Below are positions 1 through 39,838 of a stretch of 40,444 nucleotides of DNA, one piece after another. The DNA is taken from UHGV virus genome UHGV-1410056; one strand, written 5' to 3'. The notes beneath the pieces were generated by a model that saw only the letters and a list, made by a program, of their open reading frames with translations, ran no database searches and was not told where the DNA came from. The stretch is from a virus. Position 1 is the first letter of the stretch. Each line of letters opens with the position of its first letter. The translations under genes were made by a program, and so were the position numbers.

Positions 1-17
1 ATTGAGTGGGAATGATT
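1..17 (+). repeat. attL core direct repeat ATTGAGTGGGAATGATT
   Basis: Exact 17-nt copy of 40428-40444; flanked by inverted repeat GGAATGA (9-15) / TCATTCC (38-44), a possible integrase core-binding pair. Confidence 0.7.
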
Positions 18-61
18 AACAGCTAACTCATAGCAACTCATTCCTATTCAGATACTAATTT

Positions 62-5385: not shown

Positions 5386-5404
5386 AACTTGTTACCTCGG
5401 TCTG

Positions 5405-5539: not shown

Positions 5540-6124
5540 TTATTGTTTGCTTTTTTCGTTCTGGTTGATGACAAATTCAATGTAACTTTCGATCTTTGCT
5601 TTCTCGGTTTCGGGTAACAATGCGTAGCGTGAGCGGTCATAGTTGATAGTCGCAGGGTCGTGCGGGTGAATCAGTAGTTCATATCCGTGACGCCCGAATG
5701 CGGATGCAACATTCTCCAGGGTGGAAATGGAAACGCTGACCTCATTGTTTAACAGGCGGCTGATTGTCACCTGGGCGACGCCGGATGCGCGGTGAAGTTT
5801 TCCCTGTGTTGAAAGGTCGCGGCTTTCGCTCATCCAGCGTTCCAGGTTGTGAGCCGCCAGCTGACCTATATCGCTCGGGCCGACAGGCTGAAAACCCTCC
5901 TGAGAAAGCGAACGATCAATATCAAGCCAGTTACGGGGTTTATTGGCGGCAGCTTCAATTTTTCGTGCAACCTGGTCGCCGATAACCTTCTTGCCAAGAG
6001 CCCAGCGGTTTACCAGATTTGCCTGAGTTCCAAGTTTTTCTGCCATCCGCGTCTGAACACCATTGAATTCACGGTCGATCAAGTCGTTGAGATTTTGCCT
6101 GCGGACGTCCTGGATACTTTTCAT
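5540..6124 (-). CDS. CI-like phage repressor with two HTH (XRE-type) domains and no S24 peptidase domain
   Basis: 194 aa; two HTH-like segments (TRMAEKLGTQANLVNRW... and ASGVAQVTISRLLNNE...); no Ser/Lys autocleavage module; divergent from Cro-like gene; no SD before ATG (possibly leaderless). Confidence 0.7.
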   Translation of the reverse strand: MKSIQDVRRQNLNDLIDREFNGVQTRMAEKLGTQANLVNRWALGKKVIGDQVARKIEAAANKPRNWLDIDRSLSQEGFQPVGPSDIGQLAAHNLERWMSESRDLSTQGKLHRASGVAQVTISRLLNNEVSVSISTLENVASAFGRHGYELLIHPHDPATINYDRSRYALLPETEKAKIESYIEFVINQNEKSKQ

Positions 6125-6179
6125 TTTCTGGAAAATCGCCTCATATATGAATCAGTAGATGATTCAATTTAAAGCAATA

Positions 6180-8466: not shown

Positions 8467-8543
8467 TTACCTGTTAGGTAACAAAATATTATAAACTCTA
8501 TTGATTTCATGTCTTATGTGGTTTTTAATTACCTCAGAGGTAA
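8467..8543. promoter_or_regulatory. Two perfect TTACC-N5-GGTAA operators (8467-8481, 8529-8543) immediately upstream of the gene starting at 8547
   Basis: Second site overlaps the SD (GAGG 8537-8540). Confidence 0.55.
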
Positions 8544-8546
8544 ATC

Positions 8547-8891
8547 ATGAGAAAACAGATACAGGCTCTTGGTCGACTCAAAACAGGCCAGATGAACAAA
8601 ACTGAATCTGCGTATTGCCAGCACCTTGAGCTGCGTAAACGTGCAGGGGAAATCGCCTGGTATCGATTCGAGGGTATCAAGCTGCGGTTAGCTGACAACA
8701 CGTTCTATACGCCAGATTTCGCTGTGATGCTCGCCACCGGAGAGATGGAACTGCACGAAGTGAAAGGTTTCTGGACCGACGACGCCAGGGTGAAAACCAA
8801 AGTCGCCGCAGATCAGTATCCGTTCCGAATCATCGGGGTAACGGTTAAACCAAAGAAAGCAGGTGGTGGCTGGAACATCGAAGAGTTCTGA
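8547..8891 (+). CDS. DUF1064-like phage protein (putative nuclease fold)
   Basis: 114 aa; pattern YCQHLELRKRAGEI ... YTPDFAV ... EVKGF resembles the DUF1064 family. Confidence 0.45.
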   Translation: MRKQIQALGRLKTGQMNKTESAYCQHLELRKRAGEIAWYRFEGIKLRLADNTFYTPDFAVMLATGEMELHEVKGFWTDDARVKTKVAADQYPFRIIGVTVKPKKAGGGWNIEEF

Positions 8892-11660: not shown

Positions 11661-11934
11661 CCTGCAACTTGCCGTCAAAGGTGAATACTTCGATGCCATG
11701 ATTCGTGGAGAGAAAACGGAAGAGTATCGCTTGTGTAATGACTACTGGAATAAGCGAATTATGTTCCGCGAGTATGGCCGCCTGATTATCACAAAGGGAT
11801 ATCCGAAGCGTGACGATTCCAGCCGCAGAATTGATGTCCCGTATGACGGATATGAAATCAAGACAATCACACATCCCCACTTCGGCGATAAACCGGTAAA
11901 GGTGTTCGCGATAAAGGTAAATATTGATGGCTAA
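11653..11934 (+). CDS. ASCH-like small protein
   Basis: 93 aa; GTG start after AGGAGG; motif GEYFDAMIRGEKTEEYR reminiscent of ASCH/DUF3850. Confidence 0.4.
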   Translation: MANLQLAVKGEYFDAMIRGEKTEEYRLCNDYWNKRIMFREYGRLIITKGYPKRDDSSRRIDVPYDGYEIKTITHPHFGDKPVKVFAIKVNIDG

Positions 11935-12265
11935 ATCAGCAGCAGAGCGCAAAGCCGCTCAGAGAGCCAGACAAGCTGCATCTGGTGTGCGTAAGCTGGA
12001 AATTGTGCTTGATGCTCAGGAAATTGAAATGCTGGAGCGTAACTGTGCCACGCGTCGCCCCGGGCGTGCGCCTTACGAATTTGGTGAGTATATAGCGTTA
12101 CTGATCCGCCAGGATGATGCACGCGTGCGCGGGCGTATAAAATCGATCAGCAGAAAATGTTGCGGTAAGTGCGGCGAGAGAGTTCCAGTTAATTCATGCC
12201 CGTGTAATGGTGACTCGCAATGCTGGGTGACTAAAGGCTGGCATGAAACGAAATTAATAGTGTGA
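11927..12265 (+). CDS. Hypothetical basic protein with C-terminal Cys cluster; candidate late-gene regulator by position
   Basis: 112 aa from ATG 11927; C-terminal CCGKCGERVPVNSCPCNGDSQC; last early gene before a terminator and terS. Confidence 0.35.
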   Translation: MAKSAAERKAAQRARQAASGVRKLEIVLDAQEIEMLERNCATRRPGRAPYEFGEYIALLIRQDDARVRGRIKSISRKCCGKCGERVPVNSCPCNGDSQCWVTKGWHETKLIV

Positions 12266-12273
12266 CATGTCAC
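12262..12273. promoter_or_regulatory. Perfect 12-bp palindrome GTGACATGTCAC overlapping the stop codon of the upstream gene
   Basis: One of three near-identical palindromes (also 14527-14538, 31765-31776), each next to an intrinsic terminator. Confidence 0.45.
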
Positions 12274-12314
12274 GAGTAGATTATGCATGATGAATTTGAT
12301 GGGTTTTGAATACT

Positions 12315-12340
12315 GCCGCCAACTATGGCGGCTTTATTTT
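12315..12340 (+). terminator. Rho-independent terminator (tR'-like) upstream of the terminase genes
   Basis: Stem GCCGCC (12315-12320), loop AACTAT, stem GGCGGC (12327-12332), then TTTATTTT. Confidence 0.7.
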
Positions 12341-12383
12341 GCATGGTACTATTACCACAACGGTAACTATTACCACGGTGGTT

Positions 12384-12980
12384 ATGATGCCTGCTGAACC
12401 TAAAACCTATAAACGCAAATCAACGCAATTTAAGCCACTAACAGCAATGCAGGAGGCTTATTGCCAGTCATACATCAAAACGCCTGAAAACCAGACTCAG
12501 GCAGCGATTAACGCAGGATTCTCCCCAAATACAGCGGCAGTTAAAGCCAGTGTCATGATGCGCGATGAACGCATTCAAAAACGGATTGCCGAGTTGATGG
12601 AGGAGCGCAACAAACGAATGCGCGTCAGTGCTGATTACGTTCTCATGCGCCTGGTGGAGATCGACCAGATGGACGTGATCGACATCCTCAACGACGATGG
12701 GAGCCTTAAACCAATCCGTGAGTGGCCGAAAATCTGGCGCACTACGCTTAGTGGCTTTGATCTGTCATCGACCATCATGAACATGAACGAGGATTCGATA
12801 GAGACAATCCTCAAAAAAATTAAATGGCCTGACAAGGTGAAGAACCTTGAGCTGATTGGTAAGCATGTTGATGTCAACGCGTTCAAAGAACGTCTGGATG
12901 TTAATGTGAATGTGACAATTGCTGATCGCATAGCAGCAGCCAGGAAGCGACTCAAAGAACGTCAGGATGGTAATCAGTGA
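12384..12980 (+). CDS. Terminase small subunit
   Basis: 198 aa from ATG 12384; N-terminal HTH-like region (AAINAGFSPNTAAVKAS); directly upstream of and overlapping the large subunit; track ORF start at 12306 lies inside a terminator hairpin. Confidence 0.65.
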   Translation: MMPAEPKTYKRKSTQFKPLTAMQEAYCQSYIKTPENQTQAAINAGFSPNTAAVKASVMMRDERIQKRIAELMEERNKRMRVSADYVLMRLVEIDQMDVIDILNDDGSLKPIREWPKIWRTTLSGFDLSSTIMNMNEDSIETILKKIKWPDKVKNLELIGKHVDVNAFKERLDVNVNVTIADRIAAARKRLKERQDGNQ

Positions 12981-14452
12981 CAGATACAGCGTTATCTCCT
13001 GAAGAGCAGTTGATCGAGGATATTGCAGGGTTCACTCACGATCCGCTTGGCTATGCCCTCTATGCGTTCCCGTGGGGGGAAGAGGGGACTGAACTGGCAC
13101 ATGCTACCGGCCCACGTCAGTGGCAGGCTGATGCGTTCCGAGAGATACGTGATCACCTGCAGAATCCAGAGACGCGCTATCAGCCGCTTATGCTGGCACG
13201 TGCTTCGGGTCACGGTATTGGTAAATCCGCATTCATCTCAATGCTGATCAACTGGGGCATGTCCACTTGCGAGGATTGTAAGGTCGTGGTGACCGCCAAC
13301 ACCGACAACCAGCTACGAACGAAGACCTGGCCGGAAATTATCAAGTGGTCGAACCTTGCTATCACGGAAGACTGGTTTACCTGTACCGCTACCGCGATGT
13401 ACAGCAATGACCCAGGGCACGACAAGCGGTGGCGGGCTGACGCAATACCCTGGTCTGAGCACAACACTGAGGCATTCGCCGGACTACACAACGAGCGCAA
13501 ACGCATCATCGTGGTATTCGATGAAGCGTCGAACATTGCCGATCTGGTGTGGGAGGTAGCAGAGGGTGCGCTGACGGACGAAGACACCGAAATCATCTGG
13601 GTGGCGTTCGGGAACCCGACGCGTAACACCGGGCGTTTCCGTGAATGTTTCCGCAAGTACAAACACCGCTGGAAGTGTGCGCAGATTGACAGCCGGACGG
13701 TGGAAGGCACTAACAAACAGCAGTTGCAGAAATGGGTTGATGACTACGGGGAAGACAGCGACTTCGTTAAAATCCGTGTGCGCGGCATATTCCCTGATGC
13801 ATCTGAATTGCAGTTTATCCCTACCGGTCTTACTGACGAGGCAATGAAACGGGTGGTAACCGCTGCGCAGGTTGCACATGCTCCGGTGATAATCGGCGTT
13901 GACCCGGCATACTCCGGCGTTGATGACGCTGTGATATACCTGCGGCAGGGGCTACACAGTAAGGTGCTGTGGACTGGCAACAAGACTACCGACGATCTGA
14001 TTATGGCGAAGCGTATCGCTGACTTTGAAGACCAGTATCAGGCTGACGCGGTGTTCATCGACTTCGGTTACGGAACCGGTTTGAAGTCAATCGGTGACGG
14101 CTGGGGTCGTACATGGCAACTTGTTCCGTTCGGTGGCGCGTCTACTGACCCGCAGATGCTCAACAAGCGTGGGGAGATGTTCAATTCATGCAAGACATGG
14201 CTGAGGCTTGGCGGCATGCTGGATGACCAGGAAACAGCAGACGACCTGTCGGCGGCAGAGTACAAAGTTCGAGTGGACGGTAAAATCGTTATCGAACCGA
14301 AGGAAGATATCAAGGAGCGGCTTGGGCGTTCACCGGGTAAAGGCGATGCGCTACTGCTGACGTTTGCGTTCCCTGTGTCTAAGCGTCTGCGAATTCCCGG
14401 GCAGCAGAACCAGCAAGGCAAGGCCATCACAGATTACGATCCCTATGCTTAA
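12977..14452 (+). CDS. Terminase large subunit (ATPase/nuclease)
   Basis: 491 aa; Walker-A-like SGHGIGKS, VVFDEASN-type Walker B region and C-terminal nuclease-like region; GTG start overlapping terS stop. Confidence 0.85.
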   Translation: MTDTALSPEEQLIEDIAGFTHDPLGYALYAFPWGEEGTELAHATGPRQWQADAFREIRDHLQNPETRYQPLMLARASGHGIGKSAFISMLINWGMSTCEDCKVVVTANTDNQLRTKTWPEIIKWSNLAITEDWFTCTATAMYSNDPGHDKRWRADAIPWSEHNTEAFAGLHNERKRIIVVFDEASNIADLVWEVAEGALTDEDTEIIWVAFGNPTRNTGRFRECFRKYKHRWKCAQIDSRTVEGTNKQQLQKWVDDYGEDSDFVKIRVRGIFPDASELQFIPTGLTDEAMKRVVTAAQVAHAPVIIGVDPAYSGVDDAVIYLRQGLHSKVLWTGNKTTDDLIMAKRIADFEDQYQADAVFIDFGYGTGLKSIGDGWGRTWQLVPFGGASTDPQMLNKRGEMFNSCKTWLRLGGMLDDQETADDLSAAEYKVRVDGKIVIEPKEDIKERLGRSPGKGDALLLTFAFPVSKRLRIPGQQNQQGKAITDYDPYA

Positions 14453-14494: not shown

Positions 14495-14530
14495 TAAAAC
14501 AAAGCCAGCTCATAGGCTGGCTGTTTGTGA
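14495..14530. terminator. Bidirectional intrinsic terminator between convergent terL and Gp49-like gene
   Basis: Stem AGCCAGC (14503-14509) / GCTGGCT (14516-14522), T-rich on plus side (GTTTGTG) and on minus side (TTTGTTTT). Confidence 0.6.
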
Positions 14531-14538
14531 TATGTCAC
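14527..14538. promoter_or_regulatory. Palindrome GTGATATGTCAC (11 of 12 match to GTGACATGTCAC)
   Basis: Abuts the bidirectional terminator. Confidence 0.4.
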
Positions 14539-15117: not shown

Positions 15118-15194
15118 TGGCGTGGCATGCAGGATTCGAACCTGCGACCAACCGCTTAGAAGGCGGTTGCTCTGTCCAACTGAGCTAATGCCAC
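15118..15194 (-). tRNA. tRNA-Arg, anticodon UCU (reads AGA)
   Basis: 77 nt; manual fold gives 7-bp acceptor stem GUGGCAU/AUGCCAC, D-stem GCUC/GAGC, anticodon stem ACCGC/GCGGU with loop CUUCUAA, T-arm GCAGG-UUCGAAU-CCUGC, encoded CCA. Confidence 0.9.
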
Positions 15195-15531: not shown

Positions 15532-15621
15532 TAATTTGTGCGTTAAATGTCAACTATCTACGATAAATAAATCATATGTGGTTAAATTGGTAATAATTTA
15601 ATTGCGTACGGAGTCATTGAT

Positions 15622-31764: not shown

Positions 31765-31776
31765 GTGACATGTCAC
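31765..31776. promoter_or_regulatory. Perfect 12-bp palindrome GTGACATGTCAC
   Basis: Identical to 12262-12273; immediately followed by terminator 31777-31801. Confidence 0.45.
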
Positions 31777-32032: not shown

Positions 32033-32055
32033 CAAAAAAGCCCGCAGCGCGGGCT
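32033..32055 (-). terminator. Rho-independent terminator (minus strand) after the AT-rich two-gene cassette
   Basis: Stem AGCCCGC (32039-32045) / GCGGGCT (32049-32055), A6 on plus (T6 on minus); stem overlaps the stop codon at 32054-32056. Confidence 0.6.
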
Positions 32056-32494
32056 ATTCTTCTTCATCATTAAAAAGCGGATTGTTGTTTCCATCTGATG
32101 AAAGGAAAGGTATGTGTTCTCTTGAAAATCCAACAATGACAATTTCATTATCATTTTTTGCATAATGAATGCATTCATTAGAATGCCTTCCGCCAGGGTT
32201 GAAATTTAAGTTAATGGTATAATTCTTAAATGTGTTTGGATACCATGTTGGCCCACAATGATAATGCCAATAATTCTCTTGCTCATAATTGTCTGAGCCG
32301 GGAATTTTATCATGGTTATCATCAACCCACGAGGGCTTGTTTTTTCCAACAAGCGCCCTTCCATTGGCAACATCCTCTAAAAAACTTTGTATGATTTTTA
32401 TTTCATCATCAGTAAGGAAAGGTCCGTCTACAGCGAAAGGGGTGTTGCTTTCCCCATGTAGAAAACTATTAGATATTCTAATGTTAAACTTCAA
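32054..32494 (-). CDS. AT-rich hypothetical protein (146 aa, TTG start), unknown function; second gene of a two-gene cassette
   Basis: Track ORF 32054..32635 has no internal Met and its N-terminal 47 codons overlap the upstream small gene; TTG at 32494 preceded by AGGAG (6-nt spacer); His/Cys-rich segments (HYHCGPTW, GRHSNECIHY); markedly lower GC than surroundings. Confidence 0.45.
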   Translation of the reverse strand: MKFNIRISNSFLHGESNTPFAVDGPFLTDDEIKIIQSFLEDVANGRALVGKNKPSWVDDNHDKIPGSDNYEQENYWHYHCGPTWYPNTFKNYTINLNFNPGGRHSNECIHYAKNDNEIVIVGFSREHIPFLSSDGNNNPLFNDEEE

Positions 32495-32514
32495 GGAAAA
32501 CTCCTGATGTGCTT

Positions 32515-32682
32515 CTATTTGGAGCGAAATGCCGCCTTGAAGTCGCTGAAAGATGTTCCTGTCTGGTAAACCATATCCTTGTCGCGCTCTTTGCTTGCGC
32601 GGCCAAGCATAACTTTTCCAATGACATCCCAGCATTGCTTGGCTTGTTCATTGTGCTGAGTACGATTTTTCAACGCTGTCAT
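32515..32682 (-). CDS. Small hypothetical protein (55 aa, MTALKNRTQHNEQAKQCWDVIGKVMLGRASKERDKDMVYQTGTSFSDFKAAFRSK); first gene of the two-gene cassette
   Basis: Not in the ORF track; ATG 32682 with AGGAGG 6 nt upstream; operator 32695-32709 immediately upstream. Confidence 0.5.
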   Translation of the reverse strand: MTALKNRTQHNEQAKQCWDVIGKVMLGRASKERDKDMVYQTGTSFSDFKAAFRSK

Positions 32683-32781: not shown

Positions 32782-33492
32782 TCAGAAGAACCCTGCCTTG
32801 TCGTTGATGTATTCCGCGTGGGTCTGGATATCACGCAGGCATTTGCTCACACCGACGATGTAGCAGAACATGGTGGTCAGCTCCGCCGCCGCGCCCGATA
32901 CGTCGTGCCCGTCGTCCTGTAACTGGTTCAGCAGATTCATCAGCAGTGAGTTCTCCGTCAGGCCGAGAACACCAGACGGCGAATTAATCAGGCTGCGGTA
33001 GCCGGGCTTCAGTGGGGCGCTGTAGGTTTTGTTCTCTATCTTCATCGCCTGCATTACTGCTGACGCCGTGGCGTTGGCTACCTGGTCGGCAACCATCTTT
33101 ATGCGTTCTTCCTGCGGGAGCGAGTTTTTAATGTAGCTTCCGGTGCGGCGGATCTGAGGAAGAACCTCACCCGTAACCCATTTACGAAAGCGGTAGGGGA
33201 TAGTGCCTGGTGTCACTGCGTCGCGGCAGCGGAGGATCAGTGTGTAGAGGCCTGACTCGGAGATGATGTTGATCTCTTTTACTCGGCTGTCAAAAATTGC
33301 ACGATGTTCATGCCCTATGTTGAACATAGACCTTTCATCATCATCCAGTTTTTCAAGTGCTTGGGTGACGTTTTGGATACGCAGCGCACTACAAACGTCT
33401 TGGGCTACAAACCATGGTTGGCCATCGATAATGATGGAACGGATAGGGTTAACAGATTCAAATTTGAAGATGGAAGTTTGAGCATTAGCCAT
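32782..33492 (-). CDS. Antirepressor (Bro-N / AntA-type N-terminal domain plus C-terminal domain)
   Basis: About 236 aa from ATG 33492; N-terminal Bro-N-like region (FKFESVNPIRSIIIDGQPWFVAQDVCSAL); C-terminal 80 aa paralogous to the LexA-box gene at 34641-34898. Confidence 0.7.
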   Translation of the reverse strand: MANAQTSIFKFESVNPIRSIIIDGQPWFVAQDVCSALRIQNVTQALEKLDDDERSMFNIGHEHRAIFDSRVKEINIISESGLYTLILRCRDAVTPGTIPYRFRKWVTGEVLPQIRRTGSYIKNSLPQEERIKMVADQVANATASAVMQAMKIENKTYSAPLKPGYRSLINSPSGVLGLTENSLLMNLLNQLQDDGHDVSGAAAELTTMFCYIVGVSKCLRDIQTHAEYINDKAGFF

Positions 33493-33510
33493 GGTGGTTA
33501 TCTCCACTTA

Positions 33511-33524: not shown

Positions 33525-33648
33525 CACCGCAACGCCAATTACTGGTGGTGAACTGGACAAGGTTGGCGTACCGGCCTAAGTGGTACCGGCGTCCTTTCGG
33601 ACCCCTGCCCAGCCCACCATAATTCGGATATAGCTGTGCTTAACGCAT

Positions 33649-33782
33649 AAAAAAACCACGTCTGGCGTGGTATGCGCCACTTAGTAACCCGGGACGCCAA
33701 TCCCGGCACTGGATTTTGCCAGTGCCCGATTACTATGGCACAAGAGGAGTGCGATGTAAATTTACCGCAAAGGTAATGATAA
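33649..33782 (-). ncRNA. Candidate small RNA or attenuated leader (about 120 nt) upstream of the antirepressor gene
   Basis: Reverse-strand promoter TTGATT (plus 33800-33805) - 17 bp - TATCAT (plus 33777-33782), overlapped by operator 33762-33776; transcript contains hairpins (GGCACTGG/CCAGTGCC; CCGGGA/TCCCGG) and ends at intrinsic terminator CCACG-N5-CGTGG + T7 (plus 33649-33670); no credible ORF. Confidence 0.4.
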
Positions 33783-34640: not shown

Positions 34641-34898
34641 TTACCGGGTTTGTTTTCGTAATTGTTCGGCACAATAGTCGAGATGTGTTTGCAGATCCTG
34701 CATAGACATCTGTGAGCTGGTGACGTAGTTAATCAGTGCAGTCAGTTCGGCAAGTGGGCCATCGACATTAAATCCATCCTTATCGAGATCCCGGAGTAAT
34801 TTCATCAAGTGCGATCCCTCCACCAGTGACCTGACGCCTCCCGGCGTGTGAATCCTTTCGGTAAATCCGTCTTCCAGTGGATAGTGATACTGCTGCAT
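34641..34898 (-). CDS. Small LexA-controlled protein (85 aa) homologous to the antirepressor C-terminal domain; candidate SOS-induced antirepressor
   Basis: Start ATG 34898 (GGAGAAG SD) within track ORF 34641..34916; about 40% identity by eye to the C-terminus of the Bro-N antirepressor (shared GV..L.E.S.LM.LL..L..DG..V.G...ELT ... D.QTH); LexA box immediately upstream. Confidence 0.6.
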   Translation of the reverse strand: MQQYHYPLEDGFTERIHTPGGVRSLVEGSHLMKLLRDLDKDGFNVDGPLAELTALINYVTSSQMSMQDLQTHLDYCAEQLRKQTR

Positions 34899-34919
34899 CT
34901 TATCTTCTCCATGCAATAA

Positions 34920-34935
34920 CTGTATATTTATACAG
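34920..34935. promoter_or_regulatory. LexA (SOS) box CTGTATATTTATACAG
   Basis: Perfect CTGT-N8-ACAG with AT-rich spacer (extended TAACTGTATATTTATACAGTAT, 34917-34938), 4 bp from the first ATG of the minus-strand gene. Confidence 0.75.
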
Positions 34936-34974
34936 TATCAAATAATTTGTTTGCTATCCAGCACGTTTTGCAAA

Positions 34975-34989: not shown

Positions 34990-35093
34990 TATCTATTCGT
35001 ATTTACAGCCTTTCTATCCATATGTGGTTTTCCAGGTAATAGAATAACCAGATATGCGGCGCAACGGGTGCTGCGACTATCTGGAGATTTAAC

Positions 35094-39219: not shown

Positions 39220-39838
39220 ACAATTCCAGCGAGCTGCTGGTATCAGCGAGGCACTGGCCGCACGCTGGTTCTCGCATATAACTTCTGCGATGAAAGAGTT
39301 TGGTATCAGCAAAGCAGAAGATCAGGCAATGTTTATTGCTCAAGTCGGGCATGAGTCTGGGGGCTTCACCAGGTTGCAGGAGAATTTCAACTACAGTGTC
39401 AGCGGACTGGCTAACTTCGTTCGGGCTGGGCGTCTCACTCAGGGGCAGGCTAATGCACTGGGGCGCCGTGCTGGTGAACCACCATTGCCACTTGAGCGCC
39501 AGCGCGCGATCGCAAATCTGGTATACAGCAAACGCATGGGGAACAATGCCCCTGGTGATGGCTGGAATTACCGAGGGCGCGGACTTATCCAGATTACCGG
39601 TTTGAATAACTATCGTGATTGCGGAAACGGTCTGAAGGTTGACCTGCTGGAGAGCCCTGAACTGCTGGCGCAGGACGAATATGCGGCTCGTAGCGCGGCG
39701 TGGTTCTTCGCCAGCAAAGGATGCATGAAGTATACCGGCGATATTGCACGTGTAACTCTGATTATCAATGGTGGCCGGAACGGCATCGACGACCGGCGAG
39801 CGCGGTACATCACTGCCAGTAAGGTGCTGGCGGTATGA
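39209..39838 (+). CDS. Endolysin, glycoside hydrolase family 19 (chitinase-like lysozyme)
   Basis: 209 aa from ATG 39209 (GAGG SD); GH19 signature [12 protein letters not shown]; track ORF 39044..39838 has an implausible N-terminal extension. Confidence 0.75.

Follow-up and report, generated by a model that had tools for sequence, protein, structure and literature searches.

Introduction

Repressors that act at operators dispersed over the genome are known from phage P1 (the C1 operators) and mycobacteriophage L5 (the gp71 stoperators). In phages lambda and SPP1, the sites for the small terminase subunit TerS are located immediately upstream of the small terminase gene, at cosB and pacL, respectively. 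The closest described counterpart of the locus treated here is found in the type phage epsilon15, whose record (NC_004775.2) carries a 'protein_bind repressor' feature at 12..27, directly before the small terminase gene terS, and a terminator at 39646-39672. This 'repressor' label was probably itself predicted by computation.

Here we report an analysis of the interval between a 112-aa gp49-like gene on the 5' side and terS, followed by terL, on the 3' side. The window, i.e. the whole stretch of DNA that was analysed, consists of 40,444 nt of UHGV virus genome UHGV-1410056. We propose, with a probability of about 0.65, that positions 12341-12386 are the repressor-controlled promoter-operator region of the terS-terL packaging operon, placed behind a terminator; the proposal is built on sequence comparison. 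The homologous site is already annotated in epsilon15, and for a temperate phage such biology is ordinary.

The locus lies at a position homologous to that in epsilon15 and has in common with it the terminator sequence family and the 17-bp palindrome ATTACC-N5-GGTAAT. In the epsilon15 record, annotation is given for only one site, and none for O2 (the second operator), for the extended -10 element or for the shared register of the promoters. The half-sites differ as well, being GGTAAC and GGTTAT in the window. The likeness to the Rep/Ant immunity system of Salmonella phage SPC32H (PDB 5D50, 5D4Z) consists of a Rep homologue (E = 3.5e-42) and a LexA-box ant-like gene. With P1 C1 and L5 gp71 the window has in common one immunity repressor and many genome-spread sites, including sites before late or structural operons, but sequence and protein homology to these systems is absent. 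Moreover, the L5 stoperators are asymmetric, orientation-dependent elongation blocks, whereas the sites in the window are symmetric 17-mers overlapping promoters.

Sequence data and comparison sets

Over positions 11900-13000 the window has 99.7% identity with Escherichia phage vB_EcoP_PAS61 and 98% with TL-2011b and phiV10, and by these identities it is classed as an epsilon15/phiV10-type (Uetakevirus) prophage. Micro-variation, as distinct from diversity, was assessed with 33 close variants, which are near-identical loci from viral contigs. A scan of genome contigs gave 6 diverged loci, and seven diverged lineages were compared, namely the window, epsilon15/PAT1, BUCT554, Klebsiella phi13.3 (Kp phi13.3) and prophages of Pseudocitrobacter, Erwinia and Scandinavium. 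The operator consensus was derived from the seven sites annotated 'protein_bind repressor' in epsilon15 (NC_004775.2), 7/7 of which read ATTACC-N5-GGTAAT. A full-text search of the literature returned nothing relevant on the operator sequence or on Uetakevirus regulation, and operator or promoter coordinates are not given in the ZX5 paper.

Outside the interval, the window carries a tRNA-Arg (anticodon TCT) at 15118-15194 on the minus strand, between a terL-convergent gene and the portal operon.

Terminator and start of terS

The interval and its flanking genes contain the following features, apart from the operators and the candidate promoter:

11927..12265, plus strand: gp49-like gene, 112 aa, last gene of the early-right operon (PHROG 536 'transcriptional regulator', E = 8.5e-55)
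12262..12273, no strand: perfect 12-bp palindrome GTGACATGTCAC, overlapping the stop codon of the gp49-like gene
12289..12309, plus strand: 3'-end remnant of a small ORF (...DEFDGL*), containing the spurious TTG 12306
12315..12340, plus strand: Rho-independent terminator at the end of the early-right operon, with stems at 12315-12320 and 12327-12332 and a T-tract at 12333-12340
12387..12980, plus strand: terS, Terminase_2 small subunit, 197 aa (Pfam PF03592, E = 1e-29), from a conserved ATG

The terminator reads GCCGCC-AACTAT-GGCGGC followed by TTTATTTT, a GC-rich hairpin and then a T-tract, conserved at an operon end. Terminator prediction and the RNA fold (-16.4 kcal/mol, z = -3.4) bear out the first-pass annotation, which had noticed a terminator buried in the six-frame ORF 12306..12980. 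It is kept in epsilon15, PAT1, Kp phi13.3, L092, L095 and L096 and is missing from BUCT554, L091 and L093, while the operator and -10 module is kept in every lineage compared. The terminator is real and divides the upstream operon from terS.

The 41 nt that separate the palindrome from the terminator are what is left of a small ORF, which sister prophages still carry intact. The letters GATGAATTTGATGGGTTTTGA are the leftover 3' end of this 77-codon ORF, which sits between the gp49-like gene and the terminator in the sister prophages (L014, 1190-1423) and ends in GATGAATTTGATGGACTTTGA. Searched against Rfam, the interval gave nothing at gathering score. A sub-threshold match to the rseX sRNA (12254-12339, plus strand; 27.8 bits vs a cut-off of 50, E = 0.12) runs from the palindrome to the terminator and is probably driven by the latter.

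The six-frame ORF of terS begins at TTG 12306, within the ORF remnant, and crosses the terminator; its start is spurious, as had been recognised in the first pass. The start preferred there, ATG 12384, is one codon off, the conserved start being ATG 12387. Epsilon15 has a single ATG at the start of terS, aligned to 12387, and terS of RefSeq TL-2011b begins at the ATG equivalent to 12387. In the natural variants L017, L073 and L069, ATG 12384 is changed to ATT or ACG and ATG 12387 is retained. The Shine-Dalgarno sequence GGTGG (12377-12381) lies 5 nt from ATG 12387 and 2 nt from ATG 12384. Furthermore, in L095 and BUCT554 the distance between the repeat copies described below is altered by indels of 1 and 2 nt, so this region is not coding.

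Existing records differ in this respect, PAS61 and PAT1 annotating the long six-frame ORF as terS and RefSeq TL-2011b and epsilon15 using the short form. The extension crosses the terminator and the operators in PAS61 and PAT1, and only the operator region in the terminator-less BUCT554. The GenBank records in which terS is N-terminally extended include OQ921333.1 (12387-13061), MT261384.1 (23156-23827) and MW205203.1 (7171-7800).

Proposed operators O1 and O2

Two palindromes lie between the terminator and terS:

12351..12367, no strand: operator O1, ATTACC-ACAAC-GGTAAC, homologous to the epsilon15 'protein_bind: repressor' site
12369..12385, no strand: operator O2, ATTACC-ACGGT-GGTTAT, covering the Shine-Dalgarno sequence and ATG 12384

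The tandem direct repeat described in the first pass is present, with copies GGTACTATTACCAC at 12345-12358 and GGTAACTATTACCAC at 12362-12376. The exact core common to both, ACTATTACCAC (11 nt), occurs twice, 18 nt apart; the chance expectation for such repeats in 122 bp is ~0.002. The 14-15 bp direct repeat would not, however, be the functional unit, which we place instead in two 17-bp inverted repeats, O1 and O2, each with one mismatch to the ATTACC-N5-GGTAAT consensus. As read from the letters, the direct repeat is a by-product of two abutting palindromes when these are read along a single direction: GGTA(A)CT-ATTACC arises where the right half of one operator meets the left half of the next. 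Copies of the TTACC/GGTA half-sites that had been pointed out within the repeats do exist, but the first GGTA is not a conserved half-site, since its second G varies (G/T/A) among close relatives.

Throughout the 33 close variants and the seven diverged lineages the operator half-sites are invariant and the N5 spacers variable, and O1 and O2 stand 1, 2 or 3 nt apart across the seven diverged lineages. This combination argues for separate protein-binding palindromes and not for a phased tandem repeat. O2 is conserved in 6/7 lineages and degenerate in Kp phi13.3; part of its conservation may be translational, because it overlaps the Shine-Dalgarno sequence.

A further direct repeat, D2 (ATTATGCATG / ATTTTGCATG), has no conservation in epsilon15 and was treated as chance. 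The motif TGNTANNAT by itself is too short for significance and needs comparative data.

Genome-wide distribution of the operator motif and its probable repressor

The window contains 15 matches to the consensus at <=2 mismatches vs 1.13 expected, and 0/100 shuffles reach 15. At <=1 mismatch there are 12 sites, nine of them outside all ORFs of the crude map, in a sequence with a non-coding share of ~9%; the remaining three overlap just the TTG 12306 extension or an ORF unannotated in related records. Three sites flank rep, those at 5404 and 5467 being downstream of rep, at the leftward promoter, and that at 6179 being between rep and cro. Others precede operons, namely 8466/8528 (operon at 8547), 12351/12369 (terS), 15516 (gp3/portal) and 34974 (tailspike), and the sites at 33761/33854 precede an inserted module. 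The layout in BUCT554 is the same as in the window.

The window repressor (5540-6124, minus strand) is the homologue of SPC32H Rep (PDB 5D50) mentioned above, the DNA-binding domain at the N-terminus being well conserved; identity to the epsilon15 repressor is ~43% (tblastn). Homologues of rep and cro are present alongside the motif in the window, PAS61 and epsilon15. Omnitron and Chlobot, in which rep and cro homologues are absent, have 0 motif sites at <=1 mismatch, and only the gp49-like gene is common to them. From this co-occurrence of the motif with rep and cro, O1 and O2 would be sites neither for the gp49-like protein nor for the terminase. We infer that they are operators of the immunity repressor Rep, and Cro probably binds the same operators.

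The repeats had originally been offered as a binding site of either the terminase or a regulator, and the operator match supports the second option. The first would have TerS bind the repeats to begin packaging, as at the R-sites of lambda cosB or at SPP1 pacL, with which the locus shares short repeats directly upstream of the small terminase gene; several GenBank records also begin within the interval. Nevertheless, we judge it extremely improbable. The motif recurs outside this locus, and its presence goes with that of rep and cro and not with that of terS. Its 12-15 copies, dispersed across the genome with the immunity region included, cannot mark one single starting point for packaging. 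The starts of the records differ from one another (they are equivalent to 12266, 12286, 12305, 12312 and 12341), which speaks for depositor convention more than for a physical end.

Several further elements were observed around the dispersed sites. A LexA-box-like sequence, CTGTATATTTATACAG, lies at 34920-34936, before a minus-strand ant-like ORF of 91 aa (34641-34916) that is divergent from the tailspike gene. In SPC32H the antirepressor is reportedly under LexA control, which the ant-like gene and LexA box here match. A further conserved motif, (C)ATATGTGGTT, occurs at 8515-8523, 15575-15583 and 35021-35029, and also in epsilon15 (L004) at 2990 and 24753. It is found 30-42 nt downstream of the operators before the 8547, portal-region and tailspike operons, and before the lysis operon in epsilon15; no placeable sigma-70 element fits it. 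At 33541-33725 (minus strand), Rfam reports a C4 antisense RNA (66 bits) and isrK (67.7 bits), accompanied by genes at 32054-32635 and 32782-33507 (both minus strand) and missing, as a module, in PAS61. The region suggests an inserted P1-immI/Gifsy-like antirepressor-control module, whose minus-strand promoter, TTGATT-18-TATCAT, bears an ATTACC-N5-GGTAAT operator at 33761.

Candidate promoter and proposed mechanism

Overlapping O1 is a further feature:

12344..12352, plus strand: candidate extended -10 element TGG-TACTAT (P_terS), recognised by conservation, with a predicted start at ~12359

In this element TGn directly precedes a hexamer having A2 and T6. Within TGnTA(C/G)TAT, the T, G, TA and TAT do not vary among the seven lineages, while n may be G, T or A even between prophages that are nearly identical. 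Farther upstream, the flanks of lineages that have the terminator are unrelated to those of lineages that lack it. O1 begins with the last two bases of the -10, and this register of -10 and operator recurs at better promoters of the genome: at PL (TTGACA-17-AATTAT/TACC, minus strand, 5404), at 8528 (TTGATT-17-TTTAAT/TACC) and on the minus strand at 33761 (TTGATT-18-TATCAT/TACC). The P_terS hexamer itself matches at only 4/6 positions, and no -35 element for a sigma-70 promoter was found downstream of the terminator. The promoter scan did not list P_terS because it demands a -35 match. Extended -10 promoters do without a -35 element.

The weak -10 and the absent -35 would also suit an arrangement in which O1 and O2 are repressor sites with no local promoter. 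Here terS would be expressed by read-through of the terminator, perhaps aided by a phage factor, and bound Rep would act as a 'stoperator'-like block in the lysogen. The sites do lie directly downstream of the terminator at an operon junction, and in BUCT554, L091 and L093 a gene with a LexA box directly abuts the -10/operator module before terS with no terminator, so that read-in occurs in these three. Still, this arrangement is unlikely, given that TGnTAnTAT is conserved in the same register as PL and 8528 even where the flanks are unrelated, that the terminator is strong and that no antiterminator was identified.

Another possibility is control at the level of translation, by a hairpin in read-through RNA in which the nested inverted repeats hide the Shine-Dalgarno sequence and the AUG. 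The RNA of 12341-12400 folds at -20.7 kcal/mol (z = -4.1), pairing the Shine-Dalgarno sequence and both AUGs. The RNAalifold covariation term, however, is only -0.12, the paired columns being the invariant half-sites with no compensatory changes, and the fold is thus explained by the DNA palindromes. In addition, the same palindrome flanks promoters on either strand, and RNA that starts at ~12359 has a fold no more stable than that of shuffled sequence (z = -1.1). We regard an RNA leader of this kind as very unlikely.

Under the preferred reading, a repressor-controlled promoter-operator region, the sigma-70 extended -10 promoter TGG-TACTAT, with no usable -35, would start transcription at ~12359, with O1 spanning ~-9 to +8 and O2 ~+10 to +26, the ribosome-binding site included. 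Rep, and probably also Cro, would occupy these operators. PMC9638917 describes Rep as a tetramer that binds at palindromic sites, and one tetramer could therefore occupy both O1 and O2. In the lysogen, Rep would occlude RNA polymerase and the terminator would stop read-in from upstream. Inactivation of Rep by the LexA-controlled antirepressor would then allow transcription of the packaging operon from a promoter of its own. The portal/structural and tailspike operons and, in relatives, the lysis operon are preceded by the same operator. A point against the scheme is that control by the immunity repressor alone leaves the late timing of the packaging operon unaccounted for.

The gp49-like gene and the 12-bp palindrome

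The gp49-like protein has an invariant Cys-rich C-terminus and is represented in epsilon15 by gp49, annotated 'similar to N15 gp46'; its 726 homologues are all enterobacterial prophage proteins. It belongs to no Pfam or NCBIfam family, and sequence and profile searches of the PDB gave no relative. The AlphaFold model has a mean pLDDT of 52.5 and is unusable, although residues ~22-62 strike us as a candidate ribbon-helix-helix.

This gene had been assigned to the "Q position" in the first pass, and the order of upstream gene, palindrome, tR'-like terminator, repeats and terS had been compared to lambdoid late antitermination. Its product would then be a Q-like protein acting at a promoter or at the palindrome and causing read-through of the terminator into terS. 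The order of gene, palindrome, terminator and terS is indeed as stated, and the palindrome is a constant companion of the gp49-like gene. Promoter prediction also gives a weak match, GTGACA-18-CATGAT (9/12), from 12262. This match is not conserved, its -10 candidate reading CGCGAT in L095, and the stretch before the terminator, where a PR'-like promoter would be expected, stems from a deleted small ORF and shows no conserved promoter with a pause site.

The protein does not resemble Q either: neither it nor 25 homologues gave a Pfam hit to the Q families PF06323, PF06530 and PF03589 beyond noise. Homologues coexist with a genuine Q elsewhere, as an accessory gene that is not consistently found by the late operon. 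In lambdoid prophages of Edwardsiella and Salmonella the gene is in the nin region, 1.3-2.3 kb upstream of the true Q (PF06323/PF06530), and in the lambda-like Chlobot it is in the exo-xis region near xis-int, Q being encoded elsewhere. In sister prophages the palindrome is directly followed by another ORF or by a LexA-controlled promoter, and the terminator is dispensable, being missing in some lineages. The likeness to lambda Q/PR'/qut/tR' is therefore one of gene order only (last early gene, terminator, first late gene), and a lambda-like late switch at this locus is highly improbable.

Small genes with a LexA box are located between the gp49-like gene and terS in several relatives, namely BUCT554 (L006, 482-889), Kp phi13.3 (L007, 863-1195), L091 and L093. 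These ORFs vary by lineage, and a related gene of Chlobot is annotated 'UmuD-like protein'. LexA-box genes likewise come after the gp49-like gene in lambdoid prophages (DinI in L179).

The palindrome that had been noticed after the upstream gene was confirmed at 12262-12273. It directly follows the gp49-like gene in every context examined, including unrelated lambdoid prophages. It is kept in Chlobot, although it lies clear of the stop codon there, and also in cases of a different last codon. Further copies in the window stand at operon ends, at 14527-14538 (by the terL terminator, with one mismatch) and at 31765-31776, the latter 1 nt before the terminator closing the structural operon. The chance expectation for exact copies is ~0.002 per genome. 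The same pattern is seen in PAS61, in epsilon15 (L004; 39612, 2142 and 19517) and in BUCT554 (L185; 8259, 5660 and 27924), so that the Uetakevirus palindromes adjoin the intrinsic terminators of three rightward operons: early-right, terS-terL and structural. It is conceivable, at long odds, that the palindrome is the cognate DNA site of the gp49-like Cys-rich protein, which would be a site-directed modulator of termination or read-through coupling the early to the late operons. If true, this mechanism would be unlike N, Q or put-type antitermination.

Conclusions

The start of terS is corrected to ATG 12387; several records (PAS61, PAT1 and others) extend the gene across the terminator and two operators. 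On the preferred reading, the packaging, structural and tailspike operons of epsilon15-type phages, and the lysis operon in relatives, would be under the direct control of the immunity repressor and not of a lambda-like Q switch. This is relevant to the engineering of phiV10-type reporter phages and to predictions of how prophage genes are expressed in E. coli and Salmonella.
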